Positions 1 through 27,833 of a stretch of 28,062 nucleotides of DNA are shown here, piece by piece. The notes under the pieces are model-generated. The model was not told the origin of the DNA and made no database searches. It saw only the letters and a list, made by a program, of their open reading frames with translations. Position numbers and translations under genes: made by a program. Position 1 is the stretch's first letter. The number at the start of each line of letters is the position of its first letter. The DNA comes from a virus (Duplodnaviria; Caudoviricetes), in the IMG/VR virus record IMGVR_UViG_3300020699_000011, positions 1 through 28,062 of that record; one strand, written 5' to 3'.

Positions 1-1472
1 TAGCCTTGCGTTCCCTGCGCACCTGTTGAGCCTTGCGCGCCGGTTACACCCTGGAAACCTTGATTTCCTTGAAACCCTTGAGTTCCTTGATTCCCTTGAG
101 CTCCTGTGCTACCTTGCGGTCCCGTGCTACCTTGAACTCCTTGAGTGCCTTGTGCTCCTGTGCTACCTTGTGAGCCTGTAGAACCTTGAACGCCTTGGAA
201 ACCTTGATTACCTTGAGCACCTGTTGAACCCTGAGCACCTGTGGAGCCTTGAGCACCGTTGTTACCTTGATATCCTTGTGGTCCTTGTGCACCCGTAGAA
301 CCTTGCGCTCCTGTAGAACCTTGTGCGCCTGTAGAACCTTGCGCACCAGTACTACCTTGAAAACCTTGTGAACCAGTACTTCCTTGCGCCCCAGTGCTTC
401 CTTGAGCGCCAGTCGAACCTTGTGCTCCTTGGTATCCTTGAGGCCCAACACCTGAAGTAATAGAAAATGTAATTGGGTCTGTCCCAATTTTAATTACGCC
501 GTCTGGATTTGACCCTTGTGATACTTGAATCCATGTAGTGTCTGCATTGACAGTGCCGTTAATAACAAGTACAAAGTCACCGGGCTCAACTTGACCCGCA
601 ACGCTATTGTTGTAGTCTGTTGCACGTGTAAGTTTCCATAGCGAAGAAGTTCCACCTGCGCTAGTAATTGTATAAATACCATTTTGAACTGCATTTGATT
701 GATTTTTAACAAGTACACGAGTGTTTGATGGAAGAGGTCCGTTATAAGTGTAACTATCTACAACTAAATAACCATTTGTAGTTGCTTGTAAGTAAGCACC
801 AATTCCTGTTCCGTTATCCTGGTCGGCAGAACCATTTGTGTATGTTGGCGAGTTTGGAAGACCTGCTGCAGTTGCAGTGTACACAGATGCGTGAGCATTT
901 GCAGTAGAGTTTTGACCTTGAACTCCTTGGTATCCTTGAGCTCCTTGATAACCTTGATTTCCTTGATACCCTTGTGCACCGTTGTTACCTTGGTAACCTT
1001 GCGTTCCCTGAGCTCCCGTAAAACCTTGATAGCCTTGTGGGCCTTGATAACCTTGTTGCCCTTGAGTTCCAGTTGTACCTTGAGTTCCAGTTACACCTTG
1101 AAATCCTTGAGCACCCTGGTATCCTTGTGGACCTTGAACTCCTTGAGTTCCTTGAACTCCTTGAGTTCCTTGAGTTCCTTGAGCGCCAGTAACTCCTTGA
1201 AAACCTTGTGAGCCTGTAGAACCTTGAGTTCCAGTTCCGCCCTGTACTCCTTGGTATCCTTGATAGCCTTGTGCGCCTTGCGCGCCAGTGCTACCTTGAA
1301 CTCCTTGAAATCCTTGTAAACCTTGAGCTCCAGTAAAACCTTGCGCTCCTTGATTACCAATTTGTCCTTGATATCCTTGAGTCCCTTGAACTCCTTGAGT
1401 TCCTTGAGTTCCTTGAGCACCAACAACAGCGGTAGTCCAATCTGAACCACTCCAGTACTTTAATTGTGCCAC
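1..1472 (-). CDS. Collagen-like (Gly-X-Gln) fibre protein 1, 3' end truncated by the window edge (at least 490 aa)
   Basis: Missing from the ORF track because no stop lies in the window. Translated by hand from GTG at 1472: MAQLKYWSGSDWTTAVVGAQGTQG..., about 165 aa of G-X-Y, a globular domain at ~455-910 (RVLVKNQSNAVQNGIYTITSAGGTSSLWKLTRATD, a common phage fibre/decoration motif), then G-X-Y again to the edge in the same frame. Confidence 0.92.
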   Translation of the reverse strand, partial: MAQLKYWSGSDWTTAVVGAQGTQGTQGVQGTQGYQGQIGNQGAQGFTGAQGLQGFQGVQGSTGAQGAQGYQGYQGVQGGTGTQGSTGSQGFQGVTGAQGTQGTQGVQGTQGVQGPQGYQGAQGFQGVTGTQGTTGTQGQQGYQGPQGYQGFTGAQGTQGYQGNNGAQGYQGNQGYQGAQGYQGVQGQNSTANAHASVYTATAAGLPNSPTYTNGSADQDNGTGIGAYLQATTNGYLVVDSYTYNGPLPSNTRVLVKNQSNAVQNGIYTITSAGGTSSLWKLTRATDYNNSVAGQVEPGDFVLVINGTVNADTTWIQVSQGSNPDGVIKIGTDPITFSITSGVGPQGYQGAQGSTGAQGSTGAQGSTGSQGFQGSTGAQGSTGAQGSTGAQGSTGAQGPQGYQGNNGAQGSTGAQGSTGAQGNQGFQGVQGSTGSQGSTGAQGTQGVQGSTGPQGSTGAQGNQGTQGFQGNQGFQGVTGAQGSTGAQGTQG

Positions 1473-1508
1473 ACCGCTACCTTATTACTAGTAATCTTAC
1501 TTGCAATT

Positions 1509-1530
1509 CTATACATTAAACAATGTATAG
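1509..1530. promoter_or_regulatory. Perfect 9-bp inverted repeat just after the collagen gene 2 stop (weak terminator or operator); 12-bp palindrome nearby
   Basis: CTATACATT-aaac-AATGTATAG at 1509-1530; ATTACTAGTAAT palindrome at 1484-1495. AT-rich and without a U-tract, so function is uncertain. Confidence 0.35.
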
Positions 1531-1531
1531 T

Positions 1532-3598
1532 TTATGCTATTTGTATTGCGGTCCAACCAGTAGTATTTGTTGTAGAGATTCCAGTTGAAACACTTGACTT
1601 AAAGACAATGTCTCCAGTTGAAGTAGCTCCAGCCGCTACGTACACAGGACCCATTGTAGTCAATGTTGCCAAGAATGTAGTAGAAACATTTGTAACTCCA
1701 CTAGAACCACTAAACTTAAATTGAGCAGCATATCCTCCGGTAAGAGAACTTCCTCCACCGACTTGAGCTTGTATTGTTCCAGTTGCACCAGTAGTTGTTG
1801 CAGTTACTGTAGCATTTACAGTTACAAGCCACGTACCAGCAGCTAGTGTTCCAGTATTAAATACTGCTCCAGTTGAATCTGCTAAGATAGTCACATCAGT
1901 AGAAATGTTTCCTGAAGCGTAAGCAACAAACGGAGCTACAGCATCGGCAGAAGTATCCAACCAAAGAATGTTAGTGTCTGAAGGCGGAGTTCCATACGAC
2001 TCGTAAATACCTGGGTCACCAATGTTTCCTTGTGAACCTTGAGTACCAGTTTGACCTTGAGGTCCCTGATATCCTTGTGGTCCAGTATCACCTTGGAATC
2101 CTTGAGTACCTGTATCTCCTTGGTATCCTTGGTAACCTTGAGAACCAGTTGCTCCTTGGAATCCTTGAACTCCTTGATTACCAGTTAAGCCTTGTTCTCC
2201 TTGGAATCCTTGATTTCCTTGAACTCCTTGAGTCCCTTGGAATCCTTGAGACCCTTGGAATCCTTGATTACCTTGAGAACCAGTATCTCCTTGAGAACCC
2301 TGGTATCCTTGGTTTCCTTGGTCGCCCTGATATCCTTGGTTTCCTTGGTACCCTTGAGCACCTTGAGAACCAGTGTTTCCTTGAGTACCTTGGAATCCTT
2401 GGTTTCCTTGGTCGCCCTGATATCCTTGGTTTCCTTGATAACCTTGCGTACCTTGCGGTCCAGTATCGCCTTGGAATCCCTGAACTCCTTGGTCACCCTG
2501 GAACCCTTGATTACCTTGATAACCTTGTGTACCTTGTGGACCAACTGCTCCGTCAAGGTTAACTACCCATGATGAACCAGAAGGTGAACCAACAATGTCA
2601 GTAGTATTAGCAATGTTAAAAACAAGTTTACCACTTGCATTATCATATGAAACTACACTTGCAGTTGCGTAATTAGCATCGTCTTGCGCAACAAGAATAG
2701 TTTGAGGAGTTGAATAAGCAAGTCCAGCAGCAACATACAGTATGTTACTTCCAACTGCAAGAGTTACAGTTGTAGTACTTGTTGTTGAGAACTTGTCTCC
2801 TGTGACACCTTGGTAACCTTGGTAACCTTGAGGTCCCATGTCTCCTTGGAAACCTTGTGAACCAGTATCTCCTTGAAAACCTTGCGGGCCTTGGTCTCCT
2901 TGGAAACCTTGAGTTCCGTCATTACCTTGCGAACCTTGACTTCCGTCTGCACCTTGATTACCTTGGTATCCCTGGTATCCACGTACACCTTGGTAGCCTT
3001 GTGGTCCCTGGTCTCCAGTAAATCCTTGATATCCCTGAAGACCTTGGTCTCCTTGGAAACCTTGTTCGCCTTGTACGCCCTGTGTGCCCTGGTTTCCTTG
3101 AGCTCCGTCACTGCCTTGCGAACCTTGATATCCTTGATACCCTCGTGTTCCTTGAGCTCCGTCATTTCCTTGAGTTCCTTGAAGTCCCTGGTCTCCTTGA
3201 TACCCTTGGTTTCCTTGATTACCTTGAAATCCTTGGAACCCTTGAGAACCAGTATCACCTTGGTATCCTTGTGGACCGTCATTACCTTGAAAACCTTGAG
3301 TTCCTTGGTCGCCTTGCGGTCCTTGATATCCCTGGTTACCTTGCGCACCGGTTGTTCCTTGAGAACCTTGATAACCTTGCGCACCTTGTGACCCTTGAGA
3401 ACCTTGATTACCTTGGACACCAGTAGAACCTTGAGGGCCTTGATTCCCTTGAGTACCTTGAAACCCTTGAGTACCCTGAGAGCCAGTGTCACCTTGAGAG
3501 CCTTGATTACCTTGAGTACCTTGCGACCCTTGCGAGCCCTGAGCTCCAACAACGGCCGTAACCCAGGCTGACCCGTCCCAATACTTTAACTGTGCCAT
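1532..3598 (-). CDS. Collagen-like fibre protein 2 (688 aa) with an internal beta domain and a C-terminal BclA/C1q-like domain
   Basis: Two long G-X-Q tracts separated by GDKFSTTSTT...SWVVNLDGAVG; C-terminal beta sandwich with GTLAAGTWLVTVNATV; AAGGA upstream of the ATG. Confidence 0.92.
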   Translation of the reverse strand: MAQLKYWDGSAWVTAVVGAQGSQGSQGTQGNQGSQGDTGSQGTQGFQGTQGNQGPQGSTGVQGNQGSQGSQGAQGYQGSQGTTGAQGNQGYQGPQGDQGTQGFQGNDGPQGYQGDTGSQGFQGFQGNQGNQGYQGDQGLQGTQGNDGAQGTRGYQGYQGSQGSDGAQGNQGTQGVQGEQGFQGDQGLQGYQGFTGDQGPQGYQGVRGYQGYQGNQGADGSQGSQGNDGTQGFQGDQGPQGFQGDTGSQGFQGDMGPQGYQGYQGVTGDKFSTTSTTTVTLAVGSNILYVAAGLAYSTPQTILVAQDDANYATASVVSYDNASGKLVFNIANTTDIVGSPSGSSWVVNLDGAVGPQGTQGYQGNQGFQGDQGVQGFQGDTGPQGTQGYQGNQGYQGDQGNQGFQGTQGNTGSQGAQGYQGNQGYQGDQGNQGYQGSQGDTGSQGNQGFQGSQGFQGTQGVQGNQGFQGEQGLTGNQGVQGFQGATGSQGYQGYQGDTGTQGFQGDTGPQGYQGPQGQTGTQGSQGNIGDPGIYESYGTPPSDTNILWLDTSADAVAPFVAYASGNISTDVTILADSTGAVFNTGTLAAGTWLVTVNATVTATTTGATGTIQAQVGGGSSLTGGYAAQFKFSGSSGVTNVSTTFLATLTTMGPVYVAAGATSTGDIVFKSSVSTGISTTNTTGWTAIQIA
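2305..2437. repeat. 43-nt exact direct repeat (2305-2347 and 2395-2437) within the collagen-coding tract
   Basis: atccttggtttccttggtcgccctgatatccttggtttccttg occurs twice, 90 nt apart. The general ccttg 9-nt periodicity reflects CAA-GGN codons. Confidence 0.85.
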
Positions 3599-3694
3599 TA
3601 AATCCTTATTTAGAAAGTGTGAGTAAAATGTCTAGATGTCTTGTGTCTATTGTATCTTTTTTTACAAGCAAAAAGTTTAAGCAAACCTTTTATT

Positions 3695-4651
3695 TTAATT
3701 AGTTGGCGTCCAAACTCCACTAATAAGTCTAAGTACGCATCCTTCAAAAACAGGCATTCCACTTACTGGATATCCAAGTATCATTGATGACGTGTCAATC
3801 CCAGAAGCTCCTTGGTTTCCTTGTGAACCTTGGTAACCAATATTTCCTTGAAAACCCTGCGTTCCTTGAGGCCCTTGATATCCTTGAGAACCTTGAGAAC
3901 CAGAAGAACCTTGATTACCAATATTTCCTTGCGTTCCTTGGACTCCTTGTGCACCTTGATACCCTTGATTTCCCTGGCTTCCCTGGTATCCTCTAGCTCC
4001 TTGCGCTCCTTGCGCGCCTTGATATCCTTGAGGACCTTGTGGAGCAACGGCCGGAGTAGTTTCGTCAAGCCAAAGAATGTTTTCATCAACTGGAGGAGTT
4101 CCAGTGTCAGTTGCTAAAATGCCAGGGTCTCCGGTAACTCCCTGTGGACCTTGCGGGCCAGCTGGTTCTGATTCCCATGATACCGCAGTACCTGATGAGT
4201 AAAGAATTGTACCTTGTGGGCCAATTGGAAGATTTGTAAGAGCATTTTCACCAGTACCAATAAGAAGGTCGCCAGCATTTTGTACTTTTCCAATTGTATT
4301 TACTACAGCAGTGTTTGCTTCTTTTAAGTCGACTGATGTAAGAATATGAACAACAGGAGCATTTGAATTATGTGAAACTGAATTAGTTCCATCATAGCCA
4401 CGTGTTATTCCTGTAAGAGTAACTGGACCTGAGCCCCATGAATAAGAACCGGCAGGTACGTAAATCTTTTCTTCATTTGCGTTTCCAAAGTCAAGTGCAA
4501 GAGCAAATCCTCCACCAGAACCAAGTCCGTTCCAACCTGATGTTGTATTGACAACAACAATTGTCGTAGCAGAAGAAGAAATTGAAGCATCAAGTTGTGA
4601 TGTAGGAGCTCCACCAACATAAGTATTTGTTGTATATGGTGTGCGAGCCAT
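3695..4651 (-). CDS. Fibre/virion structural protein 3 (318 aa): N-terminal beta domain and short collagen tract
   Basis: N-terminal domain with EEKIYV...ITRGYDGTNSVSH, fibre motif AGDLLIGTG...LPIGPQGTIL...W, G-X-Q tract, and a C-terminal GYPVSG...WTP unit resembling the repeats of the 694-aa fibre. Confidence 0.85.
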   Translation of the reverse strand: MARTPYTTNTYVGGAPTSQLDASISSSATTIVVVNTTSGWNGLGSGGGFALALDFGNANEEKIYVPAGSYSWGSGPVTLTGITRGYDGTNSVSHNSNAPVVHILTSVDLKEANTAVVNTIGKVQNAGDLLIGTGENALTNLPIGPQGTILYSSGTAVSWESEPAGPQGPQGVTGDPGILATDTGTPPVDENILWLDETTPAVAPQGPQGYQGAQGAQGARGYQGSQGNQGYQGAQGVQGTQGNIGNQGSSGSQGSQGYQGPQGTQGFQGNIGYQGSQGNQGASGIDTSSMILGYPVSGMPVFEGCVLRLISGVWTPTN

Positions 4652-4684
4652 TAACTTTTTTCCTTCACCGAGTCACTTGGTGCA

Positions 4685-4693
4685 ATTTTACCA
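4685..4693 (-). promoter_or_regulatory. Putative extended -10 promoter element (TGG-TAAAAT) upstream of the collagen gene block
   Basis: Minus strand reads aaagaTGGTAAAATtgcacc in the 4652-4718 spacer, followed by GAAGGA and the ATG at 4651. Confidence 0.45.
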
Positions 4694-4718
4694 TCTTTTT
4701 GAGCTTGTAAAGCAATCA

Positions 4719-5363
4719 TTAAGTTAGACTTAAAGATAAGCCAGTAAGAGCAGGAATACTTGGAGTAGTTCCAGATGAAGCCACGGTTAAGTGCTTAGAA
4801 AGATACGCAAATCCAATTACATTTCCACCAGTTATTGCATTATGAATAGTGATTGCAGCAAGAGTTCCCCATGAAGCACTTGATGTTGGAAATGAAACAA
4901 TGTTTGCATTTGTTCCTGTAGTTGGGTTTGTTCCACTTGGCGCAGGAAAATTAGTTGTTGTATTTGAGTAAGCAACTCGTGAATAGTTTGTTCCAGCAAT
5001 AGATACTTCATTGAATGACGGTGAAGTACTTAACCAAAAAGGAGAAGTTGTTGATGCAACATCTTGCCAAGTTACTGTGCCATCAACAATTGTTCCTCCA
5101 GCGCTAACAGAAGACCAATTTGGTTCGGTACCCGATGTGGTGCCTGTTGATGAAGCAACAAAGATTCTATTTGTTCCAGTTCCTGGAGTTGCAAATGTAT
5201 CAAAAGTTGTTGGGATAACGTATGTTGCCCCAGACGTGGCTGCAGTAGTTGCAGACCAAATATTTGTAGTTTGAAGACCAAAATAGTATGTTGCTGGAGC
5301 AGCAACTCCGCCAAAAATGGCTGGATAAGCAATTGTTGATTCACCGTAGTATGTAAGTGGCAT
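4719..5363 (-). CDS. Virion structural protein (214 aa), tail-associated, with an inserted Trp-rich module
   Basis: YFGL...NEVSIAGTNYSR...VSFPTSSASWGT...TGGNVIGFAYL is a recurrent small phage structural protein pattern; insert W...GTTSGTEPNW...DGTVTW. Confidence 0.75.
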   Translation of the reverse strand: MPLTYYGESTIAYPAIFGGVAAPATYYFGLQTTNIWSATTAATSGATYVIPTTFDTFATPGTGTNRIFVASSTGTTSGTEPNWSSVSAGGTIVDGTVTWQDVASTTSPFWLSTSPSFNEVSIAGTNYSRVAYSNTTTNFPAPSGTNPTTGTNANIVSFPTSSASWGTLAAITIHNAITGGNVIGFAYLSKHLTVASSGTTPSIPALTGLSLSLT

Positions 5364-5375
5364 CTTGTTCTTTCT

Positions 5376-7134: not shown

Positions 7135-9219
7135 TTAGACGATTCCTACAACACTAAGTGTAGAGAAGTTTATTTGACCAGTTCCTGTGTTCCAGTTGCA
7201 TCTCATTGTCATTGTTGAATTTGTTACTACTGGTGAAAGTGGCACATAAACAAGCGACCCTGAATAAGTATTTCTAGTGGTTGTTAATGCTTGACCAATC
7301 GCAAAGTTTGCAACAAGGGCGTTACTTGGCCCTTCAATAATGTTTACAGAAAGAGTTGCGGAAGCAGATTGAGCATTTGCTTGACCCATAGAAAAAGTAA
7401 TTAAAAACTTTGAATAAACGTATGTATCTGTATTAAAAACAACACTGTTAATTGCTACTGGGGAAGTTCCCACCGGAAGGGCTGTTGATTGAGGATTTGC
7501 ACTCCACGCATCATTGTTTGGCGTAGAACCTGCAATGGCGACGATTGTGTATTTTTTTAGAGAATCATTCCATTGAACCGCACCGTTTCCACCACCGTTA
7601 GGCGAAGGTGTAAAAGTGTATTTACCGCCATCCCAATAAAGAATTGAACCATTACCAATAGAGCCAAATCCAGGAGTTGAACTCATGTTTGTAAAAAGCC
7701 ATTGCTGAGAAAGGTTATCCCAATACATAAGGCTTCCGTTAGACGGACTTGTGGTTCCGCTAACAGCCATACCTTGAATCTTGGCAACCGTTGGATTTGG
7801 GTAAGTTCCTGAAAGGTCACCACCAGCTGCACCTGATGGTGATGCCGCAGCTGGAGCCCAAGCCGTACCGTTCCATGTAAGAACGTATCCGGTAGTTGCA
7901 CCAGTAGTTGTTCCCAAAGGCGAGCCGTTAATCTTGGCAACCGTTGGATTTGGGTATGTTCCAGTTAAGTTTCCACCAGCAGAACTTCCAGAAAGAATTG
8001 GAGTTACAGCCGTGTATGAACTTCCGTTCCATTGAAGTATTTGTCCATTTGATAGAGAAACACTAGAAGTCCAGAAACCTCCATTCCAATACATAACTGA
8101 GCCGTTGCCAGTTGGAGCTCCTGTAGAGATAATTGCATTAGTGCCTGCATATGTGGAATAATAAAGAAAGTTTCCATTTGATATAGTAGTAAGGTTTAAT
8201 GTATTGCCTTGCAATTTTGCAATTGTTGGGTTAGGGTATGTACCAGTTAAGTCACCGGCAGCAGTAGTTCCTGAAACTACAGGTGTTACTGCAATATATG
8301 AACTACCGTTCCATTGAAGTATTTGTCCGGTTCCAGGCGTTGCCGTTTGCACCCACCCAGCAGTGTTCCAATAAAGCATCTGCCCTGCAGCAGTCGGCGC
8401 CGCAAAAGGAGACCAAGAAAAACTTGTAGTACTATAACCAAGAAGACTTCCATTTGAAGGCGCGTTACTTCCTGTAACATTTAATGTGTATCCTTGAAGT
8501 TTATTAACTGTCAAGTTTGAATAAAGACTACTTGCAAGGTCGCCGGTTGCAGTTGATGAAGTTGTAAGAACTGTTTGCGCTGTGTAAGAACTGCCATTCC
8601 AAACTAGTACTTGTCCGGTTCCAGGTGTTGCTGTTTGAATCCAACTGGCACTATTCCAATAAAGCATTTGTCCAGCGGCAGTTGGTGCTGCAAAAGGAGA
8701 CCATGTAAAACTTGTAGTGCTGTACCCAAGAAGACTTCCATTTGATGGAGCAGAATACCCAGTAACATTTAATGGGTATCCTTGAAGTGCATTTACAGTA
8801 GTTACTCCTGTGTTAGTTGTTGTGACATCAAATAAAAGAGATTGCGGAGTCCATGTTGAAGTTGAGTTGTTATAAATAAGAATTTGAGCATCAGTAGGCG
8901 CCGTTGCTGAGACTGCTTTACCTTGAATTTGTGTTGCGTTTCCAGTTCCTCCAGAAGAAGGAGACCATGCAGTTCCATCCCATGCAAGAACATAACCTAC
9001 AGTTGCTCCTGTAGTAGTTCCGAGTGGAGAACCGTTAATTTTTACAACGTGAGCAGAAACTGCGCCACTGCCAGTTGCAGTAACATCTCCAGTAAGTGCT
9101 GTAATGCCTGAACTTCCTCCTCCTCCAACAGAAGAAACCGGCGTCCACACTGCATCTGAACCTTTACCGGTTGACGTTAAGTAAAGTCCTTTTGTATTTG
9201 TTTGTGGAATGTTACTCAT
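7135..9219 (-). CDS. Tail fibre protein (694 aa) with beta-rich shaft repeats and a C-terminal tip domain
   Basis: Repeated (A)GDL(T/S)GTYPNPT(V/I)AK(I/L)xG and GQ(V/I)LxWNG..W/Y units; beta-sandwich-like C-terminus. Confidence 0.85.
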   Translation of the reverse strand: MSNIPQTNTKGLYLTSTGKGSDAVWTPVSSVGGGGSSGITALTGDVTATGSGAVSAHVVKINGSPLGTTTGATVGYVLAWDGTAWSPSSGGTGNATQIQGKAVSATAPTDAQILIYNNSTSTWTPQSLLFDVTTTNTGVTTVNALQGYPLNVTGYSAPSNGSLLGYSTTSFTWSPFAAPTAAGQMLYWNSASWIQTATPGTGQVLVWNGSSYTAQTVLTTSSTATGDLASSLYSNLTVNKLQGYTLNVTGSNAPSNGSLLGYSTTSFSWSPFAAPTAAGQMLYWNTAGWVQTATPGTGQILQWNGSSYIAVTPVVSGTTAAGDLTGTYPNPTIAKLQGNTLNLTTISNGNFLYYSTYAGTNAIISTGAPTGNGSVMYWNGGFWTSSVSLSNGQILQWNGSSYTAVTPILSGSSAGGNLTGTYPNPTVAKINGSPLGTTTGATTGYVLTWNGTAWAPAAASPSGAAGGDLSGTYPNPTVAKIQGMAVSGTTSPSNGSLMYWDNLSQQWLFTNMSSTPGFGSIGNGSILYWDGGKYTFTPSPNGGGNGAVQWNDSLKKYTIVAIAGSTPNNDAWSANPQSTALPVGTSPVAINSVVFNTDTYVYSKFLITFSMGQANAQSASATLSVNIIEGPSNALVANFAIGQALTTTRNTYSGSLVYVPLSPVVTNSTMTMRCNWNTGTGQINFSTLSVVGIV
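8290..8787 (-). repeat. Tandem 288-nt (96-aa period) internal duplication in the tail fibre
   Basis: LQGYPLNVTG...GQVLVWNGSSY starting at 8787 and LQGYTLNVTG...GQILQWNGSSY starting at 8499; differences mostly at third codon positions. Confidence 0.9.
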
Positions 9220-21377: not shown

Positions 21378-21620
21378 TTAGTACCTTTGCTTGCCTTTGT
21401 TAAGTTCAGCGTCCTGCTTGGCGCGCTGCCTATTTTCTTCATTGGCAATCACATTTATAATTGTAATATAGTCTTGAACTTCTTTAAGCGGTCTTAGCTT
21501 TAATGTTTCAAAGTTAAGACCTACGCGCTCATAGAGCGCATTTTCAATTAGAAACTTCTGTAGAGACGGATGCTCCGCCGAGACTTTCATTCCCATTATC
21601 GCGGCTCTCACCGCCGTCAC
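21378..21620 (-). CDS. Tail assembly chaperone frameshift extension (gpT-like, 80 aa in the +1 frame)
   Basis: Overlaps the 3' end of the upstream chaperone in the +1 frame and ends 2 nt before the tape measure start; classic G/GT position. Confidence 0.7.
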   Translation of the reverse strand: MTAVRAAIMGMKVSAEHPSLQKFLIENALYERVGLNFETLKLRPLKEVQDYITIINVIANEENRQRAKQDAELNKGKQRY

Positions 21621-21993
21621 GAAATTGAATCTCATCTTCTCCAGAACGAGGCTTAGAAGCTTCGTTAATTCTTTCATAGATGTCAATAAAAACTGCCTGT
21701 GGAAGGCGACTAATTGAATTGTGCTTTAATTTGGCTGGTGTAAGTGGTAAGTCATTTCCTTCTTCATCAGTAAGATTCCAATCAACAATTGCACGGTAAA
21801 CTAGTTCGTTTTGATACGCAATAGTGTCTGGTTCTGCTGTAAGATTATTGCCACTCATTGACATTTTACCAAGAAGTGCTCTTTGAGCTGCTTCATAGTC
21901 CTCTGCCGTAAGTGATGTTTTTATGTCAATCCAAAATCCTTTTGCGACAATTATTCGCTCAGGTTCGTTGAACAGTGATAAAAATCCTGCCAT
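21544..21993 (-). CDS. Tail assembly chaperone (gpG-like, 149 aa)
   Basis: Between tail tube and tape measure; AIVDWNLTDEEGNDLP motif; GAGGA upstream. Confidence 0.85.
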   Translation of the reverse strand: MAGFLSLFNEPERIIVAKGFWIDIKTSLTAEDYEAAQRALLGKMSMSGNNLTAEPDTIAYQNELVYRAIVDWNLTDEEGNDLPLTPAKLKHNSISRLPQAVFIDIYERINEASKPRSGEDEIQFRDGGESRDNGNESLGGASVSTEVSN

Positions 21994-25151: not shown

Positions 25152-25406
25152 CTACTCCGCGCTAGTTTGTTGTGTTAGTCGTGCGTCTTCATTCTTCTTA
25201 CATCTTGTGCACAACCAATTTTCAATAGCATGAGACCATCGAACATGCTTTTCACAAACAGCACCTCGACAATCGTCGCACCAACTTACTACAAATCTGC
25301 CCGGTTTAGAGCAGCGAACGCATTTTCTAGCTGGCTGACCCACGACGAGCTGTTGTCTTTGCTCCACCGCGGACTGCTGCGGCTGCTTCACGAGCAGATT
25401 CCGCAA
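25152..25406 (-). CDS. Small zinc-finger protein (CxxC-CxxC-CxxH-CxxC); start uncertain
   Basis: CVRC-x10-CDDC-x4-CEKH-x11-CTRC; its last codons carry the SD of the adaptor gene; 5' part overlaps the upstream gene in the +1 frame. Confidence 0.65.
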   Translation of the reverse strand: MRNLLVKQPQQSAVEQRQQLVVGQPARKCVRCSKPGRFVVSWCDDCRGAVCEKHVRWSHAIENWLCTRCKKNEDARLTQQTSAE

Positions 25407-25638
25407 CCTTTAGTTGCTCAAAACGAGCAATGTCTTTTCCAGCAAGTTCGGCATCTTGTTGCTCGTCATATGTCAATGGAACATTGCGAATATTATTTAC
25501 CCAACCCATTTTGATAAGTTCTGGCTCGCATACAACGCAACTAACGCTAATGTATGTTTCATTTTTTGTGCGTACATGTGAATGCCCAGCACCAGAAATT
25601 GTTACTATGTCAATGTCACTTTGTCCGTAGACTGTCAT
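25327..25638 (-). CDS. Hypothetical protein (103 aa) with HxH and CxxC motifs
   Basis: AGGAG SD, ATGA overlap with the upstream gene; GHSH...SCVVCEPEL. Confidence 0.8.
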   Translation of the reverse strand: MTVYGQSDIDIVTISGAGHSHVRTKNETYISVSCVVCEPELIKMGWVNNIRNVPLTYDEQQDAELAGKDIARFEQLKVAESAREAAAAVRGGAKTTARRGSAS

Positions 25639-25922
25639 GTTGTCTCCTGAATCTTCATTTCACTGCCGCATTTAGGGCATGTGTCTTGCCACTTCCAACC
25701 AGTAAAGAAACAACCAGTGCATTCAGCACCTCCGCCCTTTACATGCCCGAAGCCTAAAGCCGTCCTTGTAATAACACCAGTTTGTGCTACTCCAGATTTC
25801 ATTGCTTGACGCACGTCTCTTGGCTCATCAATTGTGACTTTACCTTGGCGATTAGCGTCAATCTTTTTTCCATTTGGAAGTTCGATTCCCGTGCAACCTG
25901 GTGGAACTGAAATAGATGTCAT
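25635..25922 (-). CDS. Hypothetical protein (95 aa) with a C-terminal zinc ribbon
   Basis: CTGC-x10-CPKCG; AGGA upstream of the ATG. Confidence 0.8.
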   Translation of the reverse strand: MTSISVPPGCTGIELPNGKKIDANRQGKVTIDEPRDVRQAMKSGVAQTGVITRTALGFGHVKGGGAECTGCFFTGWKWQDTCPKCGSEMKIQETT

Positions 25923-25955
25923 TAGTGTTTCCTACTTAATTGTTTTGATGACTTA

Positions 25956-25961
25956 ATTATA
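25956..25961 (-). promoter_or_regulatory. Consensus TATAAT -10 element just after the capsid terminator
   Basis: Minus strand ...ttttcttttgTATAATtaagt..., 33 nt upstream of ATG 25922. Confidence 0.45.
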
Positions 25962-25962
25962 C

Positions 25963-25995
25963 AAAAGAAAACGGCGGTGGTTTGCACCACCGCCG
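25963..25995 (-). terminator. Rho-independent terminator after the major capsid gene
   Basis: CGGCGGTGGT-GCAA-ACCACCGCCG: perfect 10-bp stem, GNRA loop, then TTTTCTTTT. Confidence 0.93.
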
Positions 25996-26015
25996 AATTC
26001 TTTGTAAAAATAATA

Positions 26016-27833
26016 CTAGGCGTTTGTACCACCGAGTGCAGCAGTTGACTGCTGTAGACCCTGGATAACACCATTGTATTGTGGCGCGTAGTTAACGAGT
26101 GCACCGTACATGTAAATACTGTAACGGAACGAAGCGTCAATTACTGGCCAGTTGATTGACAGGTAGTCCTGAACCATAACGTTTTCCCAAACGTTGGAGA
26201 CGTTGCTCCAAGACATTGGGAGTGTGTATGAGTTAAGGAATGCAGTACCTTGAGTCAGCCAAGGGTGAACAACGCAGCGGAGAATGCTACGGGTGATAGG
26301 GTTCTGAACTTCAGAAACCGCAGCACCTGTGCGTACTCCACCTACATCATCGCTTGATAGGAACAAACGGTAGTTTGTGTTTGCTCCTGAAGCAATGATT
26401 TCATCAGCAAGACGAGCGATGTCTGAACCTTCTGCAACCAATTCTGCAGGGTCGGCACGGAATCCACCAGTTTGCGATGCGTTACCAGTTGCTGCTGAAC
26501 CACCGTTCCACATTGCTTCAAGAGCAGTGAAAAGAACATTGTGTGTCAGAGTACTGTTGACTGACTTGTTGATGTATGAACCAGTAAATCCAGCAGGATA
26601 AACTCCAGCACCACCAGCAGCTCCACCAGCGTGTCCGTCAAGAATTGACAGCCAGCCTTCGTAGTCATTCGACGAGTATGTACCCGTGTCAGATGCAGGT
26701 GGGTTTGTTCCAGAACCAGGTACAGTTCCTTGTAGTGTAAATGTGGTTGCACCAACATTAGCAGCCATGAGGTAGTAGCCGGCAAGACTTCCAGGAGCAG
26801 ATGCAGCATTAGCAACATAAATGTTGTACTGGTAAGCACCGTTTACTGGAGCAATCTTAACGTCAATCACCTTATTAGCAGCAGCAGCAACGTAAGCGGC
26901 TGTCCCGCTGTTAATTGTTGTTTCACCAAAGTAGTTCTTTGCAGTTACTACAACATAAATGTTGTTTGTAGTAGCGCTAAGTGCTGTCTCTGCTGAAGTA
27001 GGTGCACGCAATGTTAGTGTTGGGTTTGCTGGGGCGGCTAGAGCAGCACTTGTTCCTGAAAGGAGTGTGTACTCTTCACCAAGCATGAATTCCTGCAGCA
27101 ATACCAAGTTGGCAAGAGCAGAAATGTCCTCAAAGCCCTGACCGGCAAATTGAGCAAGCCATGATAGCGATTCGCTCAAACCGAAGAACTTGTAAGGAAT
27201 GTTCATGTCGGTCGCATTTTGCGCGCCAGAGGCAGGCAAGTTTAGCGGCCAGTTCCCACCGATTGACTGACCAGATGGAATTTCCGAGATGGAAATACGC
27301 TGGTTAGGAACGCCAGTCTCAGAACCAGAAATTCCGGTTACGAGCTTAGCACGGTGTGAGGTACCCTGACCTGCGACGCGTGGGACTTTGTTGCGGAGAG
27401 GCGAGTACACCGGGTAGATGAGTCGCGAAGGAGCAACAAGGTCAAACGGTACGAAGCCGGAGCTAAGAGGAGACGAAAGCGTAATGTTCTTGCCAAGCTC
27501 GGCAGAAAGAACGCCGTTCAACTCATTAACGAGTTGTCCGTATCCTGGGTTGTTACCTTCAGTAAGGAAAAGACCAAACTGTGAGGTGAATGCTGGGTTG
27601 ATGCTCTTACGAACTGAGTCAGGGTTTGAAACGGAATTCTTAACAGATGTGCGAAGAGCACGTTCTGCTTCAAATGAACGCTTAAAGATTTCGCCATCGT
27701 CGGTCAGTGGCTGGTTGCCACCAATCTTAGCGAATCCAGCACCCTTGACCAGGTTAGGCATACGACCCGAAATCATGTCAGATGCACCCGAATAACGAGT
27801 TGCGTCGACAGCAGTGTCAGTTAAATTAGCCAG
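26016..27833 (-). CDS. Major capsid protein (605 aa from CTG 27833; 586 aa from ATG 27776)
   Basis: Upstream of the neck genes and followed by a strong terminator; PFDLVAPSRLIYPVYSPLRNKVPR, EEYTLL.G, VVHPWL, YGALVNYAP motifs; higher GC than the tail genes; GGAGG precedes the in-frame CTG. Confidence 0.85.
   Translation of the reverse strand: MANLTDTAVDATRYSGASDMISGRMPNLVKGAGFAKIGGNQPLTDDGEIFKRSFEAERALRTSVKNSVSNPDSVRKSINPAFTSQFGLFLTEGNNPGYGQLVNELNGVLSAELGKNITLSSPLSSGFVPFDLVAPSRLIYPVYSPLRNKVPRVAGQGTSHRAKLVTGISGSETGVPNQRISISEIPSGQSIGGNWPLNLPASGAQNATDMNIPYKFFGLSESLSWLAQFAGQGFEDISALANLVLLQEFMLGEEYTLLSGTSAALAAPANPTLTLRAPTSAETALSATTNNIYVVVTAKNYFGETTINSGTAAYVAAAANKVIDVKIAPVNGAYQYNIYVANAASAPGSLAGYYLMAANVGATTFTLQGTVPGSGTNPPASDTGTYSSNDYEGWLSILDGHAGGAAGGAGVYPAGFTGSYINKSVNSTLTHNVLFTALEAMWNGGSAATGNASQTGGFRADPAELVAEGSDIARLADEIIASGANTNYRLFLSSDDVGGVRTGAAVSEVQNPITRSILRCVVHPWLTQGTAFLNSYTLPMSWSNVSNVWENVMVQDYLSINWPVIDASFRYSIYMYGALVNYAPQYNGVIQGLQQSTAALGGTNA

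Follow-up and report, generated by a model that had tools for sequence, protein, structure and literature searches.

Why should an uncultured freshwater phage distribute over three neighbouring fibre genes the two halves of a module that other phage proteins carry in one piece? Fibre genes 3, 2 and 1, all on the minus strand of the stretch of DNA that was analysed (28,062 nt, hereafter the window), raise this question, as the four-strand module P..P..GxLWxDT–LKYWNGxxW, contiguous elsewhere, is cut here between strands 2 and 3: strands 1-2 (the socket) are found in genes 3 and 2, and strands 3-4 (the plug) in genes 2 and 1.

The fibre locus

The three genes and their parts are arranged as follows:

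3695-4651, minus strand: gene 3 (318 aa), putative root fibre without a plug; in order, an N-terminal domain, 5 collagen triplets, a socket, 27 triplets and a short end module
4160-4651, minus strand: N-terminal domain of gene 3 (residues 1-164), putative virion anchor
4058-4132, minus strand: socket 1, module strands 1-2 (gene 3 residues 174-198)
3698-4036, minus strand: gene 3 tail, which follows the socket and consists of 27 Gly-X-Y triplets plus an end module of 32 residues
1532-3598, minus strand: gene 2 (688 aa), middle fibre; in order, a plug, 84 triplets, an 80-aa domain, 61 triplets, a socket and a 137-aa tip domain
3548-3598, minus strand: plug of gene 2, module strands 3-4 (residues 1-17)
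1949-2020, minus strand: socket 2 (gene 2 residues 527-550)
1535-1945, minus strand: tip domain of gene 2, C-terminal to the socket
<1-1472, minus strand: gene 1, putative terminal fibre, starting with GTG and cut off by the window edge
1422-1472, minus strand: plug of gene 1 (residues 1-17), from the GTG start
447-908, minus strand: internal domain of gene 1 (residues 189-342), with PHROG matches

The N-terminal domain of gene 3 matches phrog_23837 (virion structural protein, E 9e-20), phrog_38058 (tail fibre, E 7e-7) and phage clusters without names in the Atlas, and is probably the virion anchor. The internal domain of gene 1 is common among phage fibre and virion proteins (PHROG). The tip domain of gene 2 has no Pfam or PHROG match, no homologue of the tip region was found among proteins of 378-1204 aa, and the Atlas gives a weak BclA_C-type lead (0.85 only). 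An AAGG(A) site lies upstream of both plug starts, and in-frame stops are found four codons ahead of the gene 1 GTG. The initial annotation had left it to be checked whether the part of gene 1 beyond the window edge contains a socket and the next gene a plug. In contig L480 (98% identical) gene 1 is present at its full length of 740 aa, including the plug; no socket occurs in the complete gene, nor a further plug in the gene after it. With gene 1 completed from L480, the 3-2-1 chain closes at two sockets and two plugs, with a root that has no plug (gene 3), a middle that has both halves (gene 2) and an end that has no socket (gene 1).

All three genes contain long Gly-X-Y runs that match Pfam Collagen (PF01391; 175, 239 and 55 bits, versus a cut-off of 27.2). 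In gene 2, Y is Gln in 117 of the 145 triplets and Pro is rare; the Pfam match is the sole ground for assuming a triple helix in these proline-poor Gly-X-Gln repeats. As the collagen runs (57/60/14 triplets in L480 gene 1, 84/61 in gene 2 and 5/27 in gene 3) are not length-matched, a heterotrimer of genes 1-3 was ruled out. Collagen rises by ~0.29 nm per residue, at which ~145 + 131 triplets would make a chain of roughly 240 nm. A strand-complementation system for building collagen fibres had been proposed; such a system also occurs without collagen, in L014, and 7 of the 33 plug proteins in a fresh scan lack a collagen run.

Two halves of one module

It had been noticed at the outset that genes 1 and 2 begin almost identically and that genes 3 and 2 have an internal peptide in common, and indeed the plugs share 14 of their 17 residues (18 of 21 including the first collagen residues) and the sockets 16 of 25; between the two plugs, 8 codons differ synonymously and 3 with a change of amino acid. 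Both halves are orphaned in cis, as stated in the initial annotation, with no second half after either socket and no first half before either plug. Matrix scores as well as profile tiling bear out that plug and socket complement each other as the two parts of a single contiguous module. The score matrices were trained on 27 contiguous motifs from other phages only (8 of 35 candidates having first been dropped as tandem repeats or off-pattern). The plugs score 33.9 and 28.7 bits, against 1.0 for the best other N-terminus of the 25 window proteins, and none of 4535 shuffled N-termini scores at least 12 bits; the sockets have, narrowly, the top first-half scores of the 25 window proteins (7.6 and 6.8, the next being 6.5). 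Given these scores relative to other window proteins and shuffled N-termini, the halves are not a product of chance. In the profile comparison, the contiguous module spans 39 columns, of which the sockets cover 2-24 (prob 84.7, E 6.7e-6) and the plugs 26-38 (prob 97.3, E 2.8e-11). The plug match is in part built in, since an LKYW pattern had served to collect many of the contiguous examples.

The halves also have features of their own. Gly at position -5 occurs in 23 of the 27 contiguous modules and is outside the three commonest residues in 34 sockets, and a Pro at most 8 residues past the Asp is present in 24 of the 34 sockets versus 3 of the 27 contiguous modules, so that, judged by their sequences, the sockets are a specialised subfamily with its own signature. 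All 34 plugs have only 2-3 residues ahead of strand 3. A Lys-Asp isopeptide bond was rejected as a general mechanism, because variants have Arg, Thr, Met or Glu in place of the plug Lys and because Lys occupies that position in only 11 of the 27 contiguous modules.

Pairing of sockets and plugs across phages

A survey of orphan plugs and sockets, as proposed in the initial annotation, shows that the halves co-occur in socket-then-plug order across phages. Pairs were counted by the matrices, which replaced a noisy regex count, and loci with only 300-base flanks (L126-L165, L246-L262 and 19 of another set) were left out. In IMG/VR, a plug gene is next after an orphan-socket gene in 26 of 52 dereplicated pairs, versus 16 of 1072 others (all three sets); within the socket-selected loci only, the next gene starts with a plug after 13 of 25 socket genes versus 5 of 322 others. 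After genes with only the contiguous module this is the case in 0 of 7, and after collagen genes with neither half in 8 of 83. Seen from the plug, a socket is present in the upstream neighbour of 26 of 42 plug genes and in the downstream neighbour of 2 of 42. The fresh scan (33 of 87 matches dropped, four of which, L417, L435, L450 and L456, seem to be real plugs lost to the start filter) finds that 24 of 33 plugs have a socket directly upstream, while 1 of 30 has one downstream. Within 2.5 kb, the counts are 28 of 30 upstream versus 4 of 24 downstream; in the fresh scan, only 1 of the 33 plug genes lacks any upstream socket, with just 507 bases covered there.

Presence and absence of the halves can also be followed with the gene 1 internal domain as bait, which is unrelated to either half (10 of 122 loci without a gene start and 2 short open neighbours were left out). 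Neither a plug nor an upstream socket is found for 31 of the 36 dereplicated bait genes, while the other five all have an upstream socket; two of these have a plug by matrix, and the remaining ones a plug with a longer loop, recognised by regex or by eye (L484 and L489; L488 on a first reading). The coupling persists across intervening genes in L006, L008, L206, L211, L235, L485 and L498, and socket and plug counts balance in L008, L014, L025, L030, L032 and L480.

The pairing is not complete: under strict scoring, 26 of the 52 socket genes have no adjacent plug and 16 of the 42 plug genes no adjacent socket, many of these cases being, by eye, loop variants or separated pairs. No plug is visible in the socket loci L171 and L217, and L006 has 7 sockets versus 4 plugs within 20 kb. 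Diverged plugs are often found in multi-link loci (L006, L032), 7 of the 33 plug proteins also carry a socket, and in a triple-plug variant (L110, L115, Cd1, Trax, Ardmore) three tandem plugs occur together with a C-terminal socket. Because loci are related, p-values overstate how independent they are. A scan of GTDB N-termini with one exact plug pattern gave 81 matches in 80 loci with DNA (of 115), of which 15 passed the filter and none was a convincing plug gene. A DNA match in T5 pb4, an internal stretch resembling the second half without a first half, was dropped.

Predicted fold

Contiguous relatives of ~37 residues were modelled as four strands (E4-6, E17-19, E24-28 and E33-35; pLDDT 91). 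The best match in two fold searches is the 38-residue crAss001 capsid chain 7qof_l, which is statistically weak (Foldseek prob 0.97, E 0.4, rmsd 1.3; VIA Z 4.8 over 34 aligned residues), followed by CBA120 TSP3, the Mtd N-terminus and the trimerisation domains of collagen XV/XVIII; by sequence, Mtd_N matches 1 of the 27 contiguous members, weakly (E 0.19). The contiguous module is predicted from these models to fold like the trimeric knots of fibres, with the cut falling in the loop that joins strand 2 to strand 3. A natural protein in which plug and socket are 13 residues apart was modelled with all four strands, a weak result without a control (pLDDT about 77 in both halves and 69.7 on average, the other four models reaching 52-58); fold searches with this model gave nothing at Z of at least 2 or at E 0.001. 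Sequence searches of solved structures with the contiguous and plug profiles and two locus proteins, as well as with the gene 2 C-terminus and the gene 3 N-terminus, returned only chance, collagen or coiled-coil matches. A weak match to 9d83 Gp49 (E 0.18) was also seen among solved structures.

The proposed joint and its alternatives

Since the halves are on different proteins and their pairing in gene order recurs, each fibre likely clips onto the preceding one in a forked chain. For genes 3, 2 and 1 we consider it probable that the complementary halves are rejoined in trans, three sockets and three plugs making up a predicted trimeric knot that would fasten fibre 2 to fibre 3 and, in turn, fibre 1 to fibre 2. 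Each fibre protein would be a homotrimer, with the root domain of gene 3 binding the virion; the plug hairpins would complete the knot, which may also set the register of the collagen that begins directly after the plug, and the socket chain would leave the knot sideways via its proline-containing linker and end in a tip of its own. The linking of gene 3 to 2 to 1 that had been put forward is retained as far as the order and the complementary halves are concerned, but the plain end-to-end splice is amended to a fork, because the socket proteins run on for 120-140 residues past the socket (collagen and an end module, or a tip domain). Each joint would be a fork displaying an extra adhesion tip, the tail of gene 3 being the predicted side arm of fork 1. 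Among the points against such a joint are that, with a symmetric 3+3 knot, the tails of three sockets would need to regroup off-axis, and that gene order alone would also be expected from repeated gene fission.

In one alternative arrangement the halves do bind, but the socket trimer remains on-axis together with the tip it carries, and its three sockets receive their plugs from separate fibre trimers, resulting in a one-to-three tree or a cross-linked mesh. The collagen or tip domain after the socket may itself trimerise, sockets outnumber plugs in L006, and in Tuc2009 BppU-BppA the hairpin completion is 1:1 on each trimer arm; still, this seems unlikely, as collagen directly follows the plug in most cases (26 of the 33 plug proteins have collagen), by which the three plugs are kept together, and three tandem plugs after a C-terminal socket point to three hairpins filling one trimeric site. 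Equally doubtful is that the halves act separately, the plug as a collagen-nucleating cap and the socket as an internal spacer, with their adjacency a relic of fibre genes that were split or shuffled at this loop. Fission does preserve the socket-then-plug order, related fibre regions contain contiguous (L566, L576, L586) and split (L485) forms, and the loci are not independent. A relic is difficult to reconcile, however, with the conservation of both halves across otherwise unrelated proteins, the co-variation of their presence and absence, the coupling across intervening genes, the distinct socket signature and fixed-length plug N-termini, and the finding that just one of the 33 plug genes, with 507 bases covered there, has no upstream socket.

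The similarity among the plugs and among the sockets implies that they may be interchangeable, and gene 2 could then mainly plug into itself, giving a polymer of variable length that begins on gene 3 and is capped by gene 1, for which the plug proteins that also carry a socket would be suited. We regard this as very improbable, since balanced counts in several loci fit a single copy per link and plugs in multi-link loci have often diverged. Least credible of all is a union of the halves in cis, through DNA deletion, splicing, read-through or frameshift, into an ordinary contiguous module: such a form exists, but each socket lies 120-140 codons ahead of its stop, so that read-through or frameshift cannot unite the halves, and contigs of four runs span the gene boundaries with no socket-plug link in any of the 15 joints listed (81 further ones exist; contigs only).

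Returning to the trans-completed trimeric knot, there is perhaps an even chance that it is a widespread, programmable appendage joint, in which a gene cluster encodes a forked, multi-tip fibre tree through how many sockets and plugs it has and in what order, and of which the form with a C-terminal socket and triple plug serves cultured phages as a 3:1 adaptor that attaches one adhesin to a trimeric fibre. If true, the architecture of flexible fibres, usually beyond the resolution of cryo-EM, could be read from sequence, and many small 'hypothetical' genes starting with MxxLKYWxGxxW would be fibre or adhesin subunits with a named attachment point. Phages could then gain or exchange tips without rebuilding a fibre gene, and the 17 + 25 residue pair would be a heterohexameric connector of possible use in protein assembly.

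Comparison with known systems

In chaperone-usher pili, each subunit is completed in its fold by the N-terminal extension of the next one, as is proposed here, but there the subunits are monomeric with an Ig fold, and a chaperone and usher are involved; no family of the incomplete Ig fold, chaperone or usher type was found among the 25 window proteins (28-kb contig only). Residues 1-38 of crAss001 gp21 are described as a trimer in the excerpted text of PMC10172136, and the identification of 7qof_l as gp21 rests on its 38-residue length and that description. The N-domain of this head-fibre protein, a small trimeric beta knot in a fibre, is likened to the module by the best, statistically weak, fold match, the Mtd N-terminus and collagen XV/XVIII trimerisation domains being weaker neighbours of the contiguous module. 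All strands of gp21 are on one polypeptide, whereas here the module is cut and two genes share its strands.

No description of the split motif was found in the literature that was covered (subscription journals mostly fall outside this coverage and supplements are not included), and PMC13730344 and PMC13320782, in their excerpted text, describe other architectures. In Lactococcus phage Tuc2009, crystallography has shown that a C-terminal beta-hairpin of the adhesion protein BppU completes a sheet in a domain of a second adhesion protein, BppA (PMC4742702, excerpt). According to the same excerpt, that joint is a titin-like sandwich with a C-terminal donor, 1:1 per arm and used once, in contrast to the N-terminal donor, predicted trimeric four-strand knot of ~37 residues and serial use between collagen-like fibres proposed here. 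Klebsiella phage KP32 gp37/gp38 combines a T4 gp10-like branching domain with a conserved N-terminal peptide, and deletions show that it is through this short peptide that the second RBP attaches to the first, which is encoded upstream (PMC13352976, excerpt). Here too the downstream protein begins with a short conserved peptide, but the KP32 acceptor is described as a whole gp10-like domain, and the excerpt does not present peptide and acceptor as halves of one module; no gp10-like Pfam or PHROG match was found here, the acceptor in gene 3 being a 25-residue stretch between collagen runs. In mycobacteriophage Mysterious, the C-terminus of the gp40 fibre trimer is engaged by an N-terminal triangular three-hairpin fold of gp41, the product of the next gene (PMC13252515, a preprint, in excerpt), which is the layout of the triple-plug variant; that joint is 3:1 and terminal, and is not termed a split module in the excerpt. 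Acadian gp40 and gp41, the counterparts of this pair, are negative on both matrices and belong to a different sequence family. The Tuc2009 BppU-BppA completion, the KP32 docking peptide and the Mysterious gp40-gp41 joint are each a precedent for the principle of the joint proposed here.

Gene cluster and the four peptides

The window is the entire 28-kb contig of this virus and holds a minus-strand structural operon of the long-tailed phage type, in which tail tube, tape measure, minor tail and NlpC/P60 genes are followed by three collagen-like genes. The stretch 1400-4700 is present in 24 public runs, every one of them freshwater or freshwater sediment DNA, and ten of these are possible sources of the contig. 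The collagen-like genes carry two sockets and two plugs (i.e. strands 1-2 and strands 3-4 of a small module), and a check on the sequence found all four peptides where the initial annotation had placed them:

3695-4651, minus: gene 3, 318 aa; N-terminal domain, 5 collagen triplets, socket, 27 triplets, end module
4058-4132, minus: socket of gene 3
1532-3598, minus: gene 2, 688 aa; plug, 84 triplets, 80-aa domain, 61 triplets, socket, 137-aa tip
3548-3598, minus: plug of gene 2
1949-2020, minus: socket of gene 2
<1-1472, minus: gene 1, GTG start; plug at its N-terminal beginning
1422-1472, minus: plug of gene 1

In L480, a metagenome contig that shares 98% identity with the window, gene 2 (3220-5374) encodes 718 aa versus 688 aa in the window, with 10 more collagen triplets, reflecting either repeat-length variation or an assembly difference. 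Gene 1 is complete there (740 aa) and has the plug. The initial annotation had asked whether its missing 3' end carries a socket and the following gene a plug: gene 1 lacks a socket, the following gene lacks a plug, and no plug turned up over 4.8 kb downstream. The putative fibre chain closes at gene 1. Another locus, L003, has the same root/middle/end layout with different tips.

Immediately upstream of gene 3 lies a gene (4719-5363, minus) with a Pfam match to Gp80, GP4 fibre I (E 9e-11), a fibre that assembles as dimers on a rope protein (PMC13730344). A 694-aa protein (7135-9219, minus) repeats a module QG.P/V....P..G..L.W/Y....W, and similar modules are found at the end of gene 3 (3698-3793, minus) and of the middle fibres in L003, L008 and L025. 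Two overlapping ORFs (21378-21993, minus) with a weak Phage_TAC_5 match are flanked by the tail tube and tape measure genes, where the tail assembly chaperone frameshift pair is usually found. In the region 25152-27776 (minus), a probable capsid protein of 586 aa, whose sole match is phrog_13692 (unknown function), is followed by small Cys-containing ORFs.

Two halves of one module

Contiguous motifs from fetched loci (64, dereplicated to 35, of which 27 were kept) were used to train matrices, and these, based on the 27 contiguous motifs only, picked out the window plugs by a wide margin and the window sockets only narrowly. In a profile comparison the sockets correspond to columns 2-24 and the plugs to columns 26-38 of the contiguous module, and matrices and tiling together bear out the proposal that the peptides are complementary halves of one contiguous unit. 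Since the contiguous module is predicted to be four-stranded (pLDDT 91), the cut falls between strands 2 and 3. Two structural searches placed the module closest to 7qof_l, a crAss001 capsid chain of 38 residues (weak; E 0.4, Z 4.8), and next, also weakly, to CBA120 TSP3, the Mtd N-terminus and collagen XV/XVIII trimerisation domains; residues 1-38 of crAss001 gp21 are described as trimeric (PMC10172136).

From the sequences, the split state looks selected. The Gly of 23/27 contiguous modules is missing from the sockets, in which the proline lies two residues closer; exit through proline occurs in 24/34 sockets versus 3/27 contiguous modules, and in 18/23 when sockets selected on that pattern are set aside. 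In 34/34 plugs strand 3 is preceded by 2-3 residues. Between the plugs of genes 1 and 2, 8 codon differences are synonymous and 3 change the amino acid.

Socket-plug coupling across phages

Three IMG/VR scans were analysed with one common gene-pairing procedure, restricted to loci with full flanks. Where loci were chosen by socket alone, a plug gene came next after 13/25 socket genes versus 5/322 other genes; over all three sets the counts were 26/52 and 16/1072, with 0/7 after genes having only a contiguous module and 8/83 after collagen genes without either half. The socket lay upstream of 26/42 plug genes and downstream of 2/42. A further N-terminal plug scan, overlapping these sets (87 matches, 54 kept, 33 after dereplication), placed a socket in the upstream neighbour in 24/33 cases versus 1/30 downstream, and within 2.5 kb in 28/30 versus 4/24. 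The loci are related, and nominal p-values therefore overstate the coupling. The expected co-occurrence of orphan plugs and orphan sockets thus holds in these related IMG/VR loci, in socket-then-plug order.

With the internal domain of gene 1 (447-908, minus), which is unrelated to the halves, as bait, neither plug nor upstream socket scored in 31/36 genes, although both halves can be read by eye in one of these (L511). Both scored in 2/36, and 3/36 had a socket plus a plug variant missed by the ungapped matrix (L484 and L489, both checked, and provisionally L488); the positives represent about three lineages. Some fibre genes with this domain have a contiguous module near the N-terminus (L566, L576, L586), others a plug with an upstream socket (L485, L489, L552).

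Strict scoring overlooks longer-loop plugs and pairs parted by other genes (L006, L008, L206, L211, L235, L485, L498). True exceptions are L171 and L217, which show no plug, and L006, with 7 sockets versus 4 plugs in 20 kb. Several L006 genes have two sockets, and five unrelated genes separate its root from the first plug gene. The genomic case for a putative paired joint is strong.

In a second layout (L110, 4028-4251; L115, 5007-5236; L075; L098) the fibre terminates in a first half, and two or three tandem second halves stand in the following gene, at its start or end. Cultured phages share it, i.e. L478 (Cd1 tail fibre and next gene), L477 (Trax gp32/gp33) and L476 (Ardmore gp23/gp24); in these three the triple plug scores well, but the first half at the C-terminus can be recognised only by eye. 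A query protein for this layout weakly matched 254 phage records. The arrangement is a candidate 3:1 adaptor and, as the same parts rearranged, supports three hairpins per site. Many small plug proteins (L015, L023, L040, L012, L013, L029, L485 and neighbours) have nothing beyond plug and collagen except a short, hydrophobic C-terminus (D..(F/L)MLGGM or D.S.IL..QVFS in type) that may be a second docking peptide.

Proposed joint and alternatives

It seems likely that three sockets and three plugs would form a six-chain knot. The root trimer would be anchored via the N-terminal domain of gene 3, which has a PHROG match to a virion protein; knot 1 would lead on into fibre 2, and knot 2 into fibre 1. 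Because the socket chain runs on beyond the cut, each knot would be a fork with an extra tip. In L030 (8 sequences), a natural protein with plug and socket 13 residues apart, all four strands are assigned in the predicted fold; this model (pLDDT about 77 in the halves, 62 in the linker, mean 69.7; other models lower) is a weak, uncontrolled substitute for the complex, and had no match in fold searches.

The feature itself is real. That the halves are fused in cis is highly improbable, because the sockets lie 120-140 codons ahead of their stops, the gene boundaries are bridged by contigs of four runs, and 0/15 joints listed link socket to plug. Self-polymerisation of gene 2, which has both halves, is very unlikely. 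Somewhat less remote, and unlikely to an equal degree, are side-on docking, in which one socket fibre would bind to three, and independence of the halves, left behind by gene fission. The six-chain knot remains the preferred reading.

Comparison with known systems

The proposed joint can be compared with donor-strand complementation in chaperone-usher pili, where the fold of one subunit is completed by the N-terminal extension of the next. Among phages, a 25-residue hairpin of Tuc2009 BppU completes the BppA sheet (PMC4742702), KP32 RBP2 docks through a 29-residue N-terminal peptide onto the RBP1 branching domain, with deletion evidence (PMC13352976), and the N-terminal triangular fold of Mysterious gp41, with three hairpins, binds the gp40 trimer (2026 preprint, PMC13252515). 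Acadian gp40/gp41 is a putative similar joint from a different sequence family than the split module: Acadian gp40 (L479:13539-15100, gp40/gp41) has the 136 aa and the D19, D20, E21, D103 and Y134 given for Mysterious gp40, without its R7, R18, R28 and R51. At its C-terminus Acadian gp40 has a truncated knob-like peptide, and gp41 opens with three short repeats. Searches of mostly open-access literature turned up no split trimeric knot that serves as a serial joint between collagen-like fibres. Given the Tuc2009, KP32 and Mysterious joints, the principle is already known in phages.
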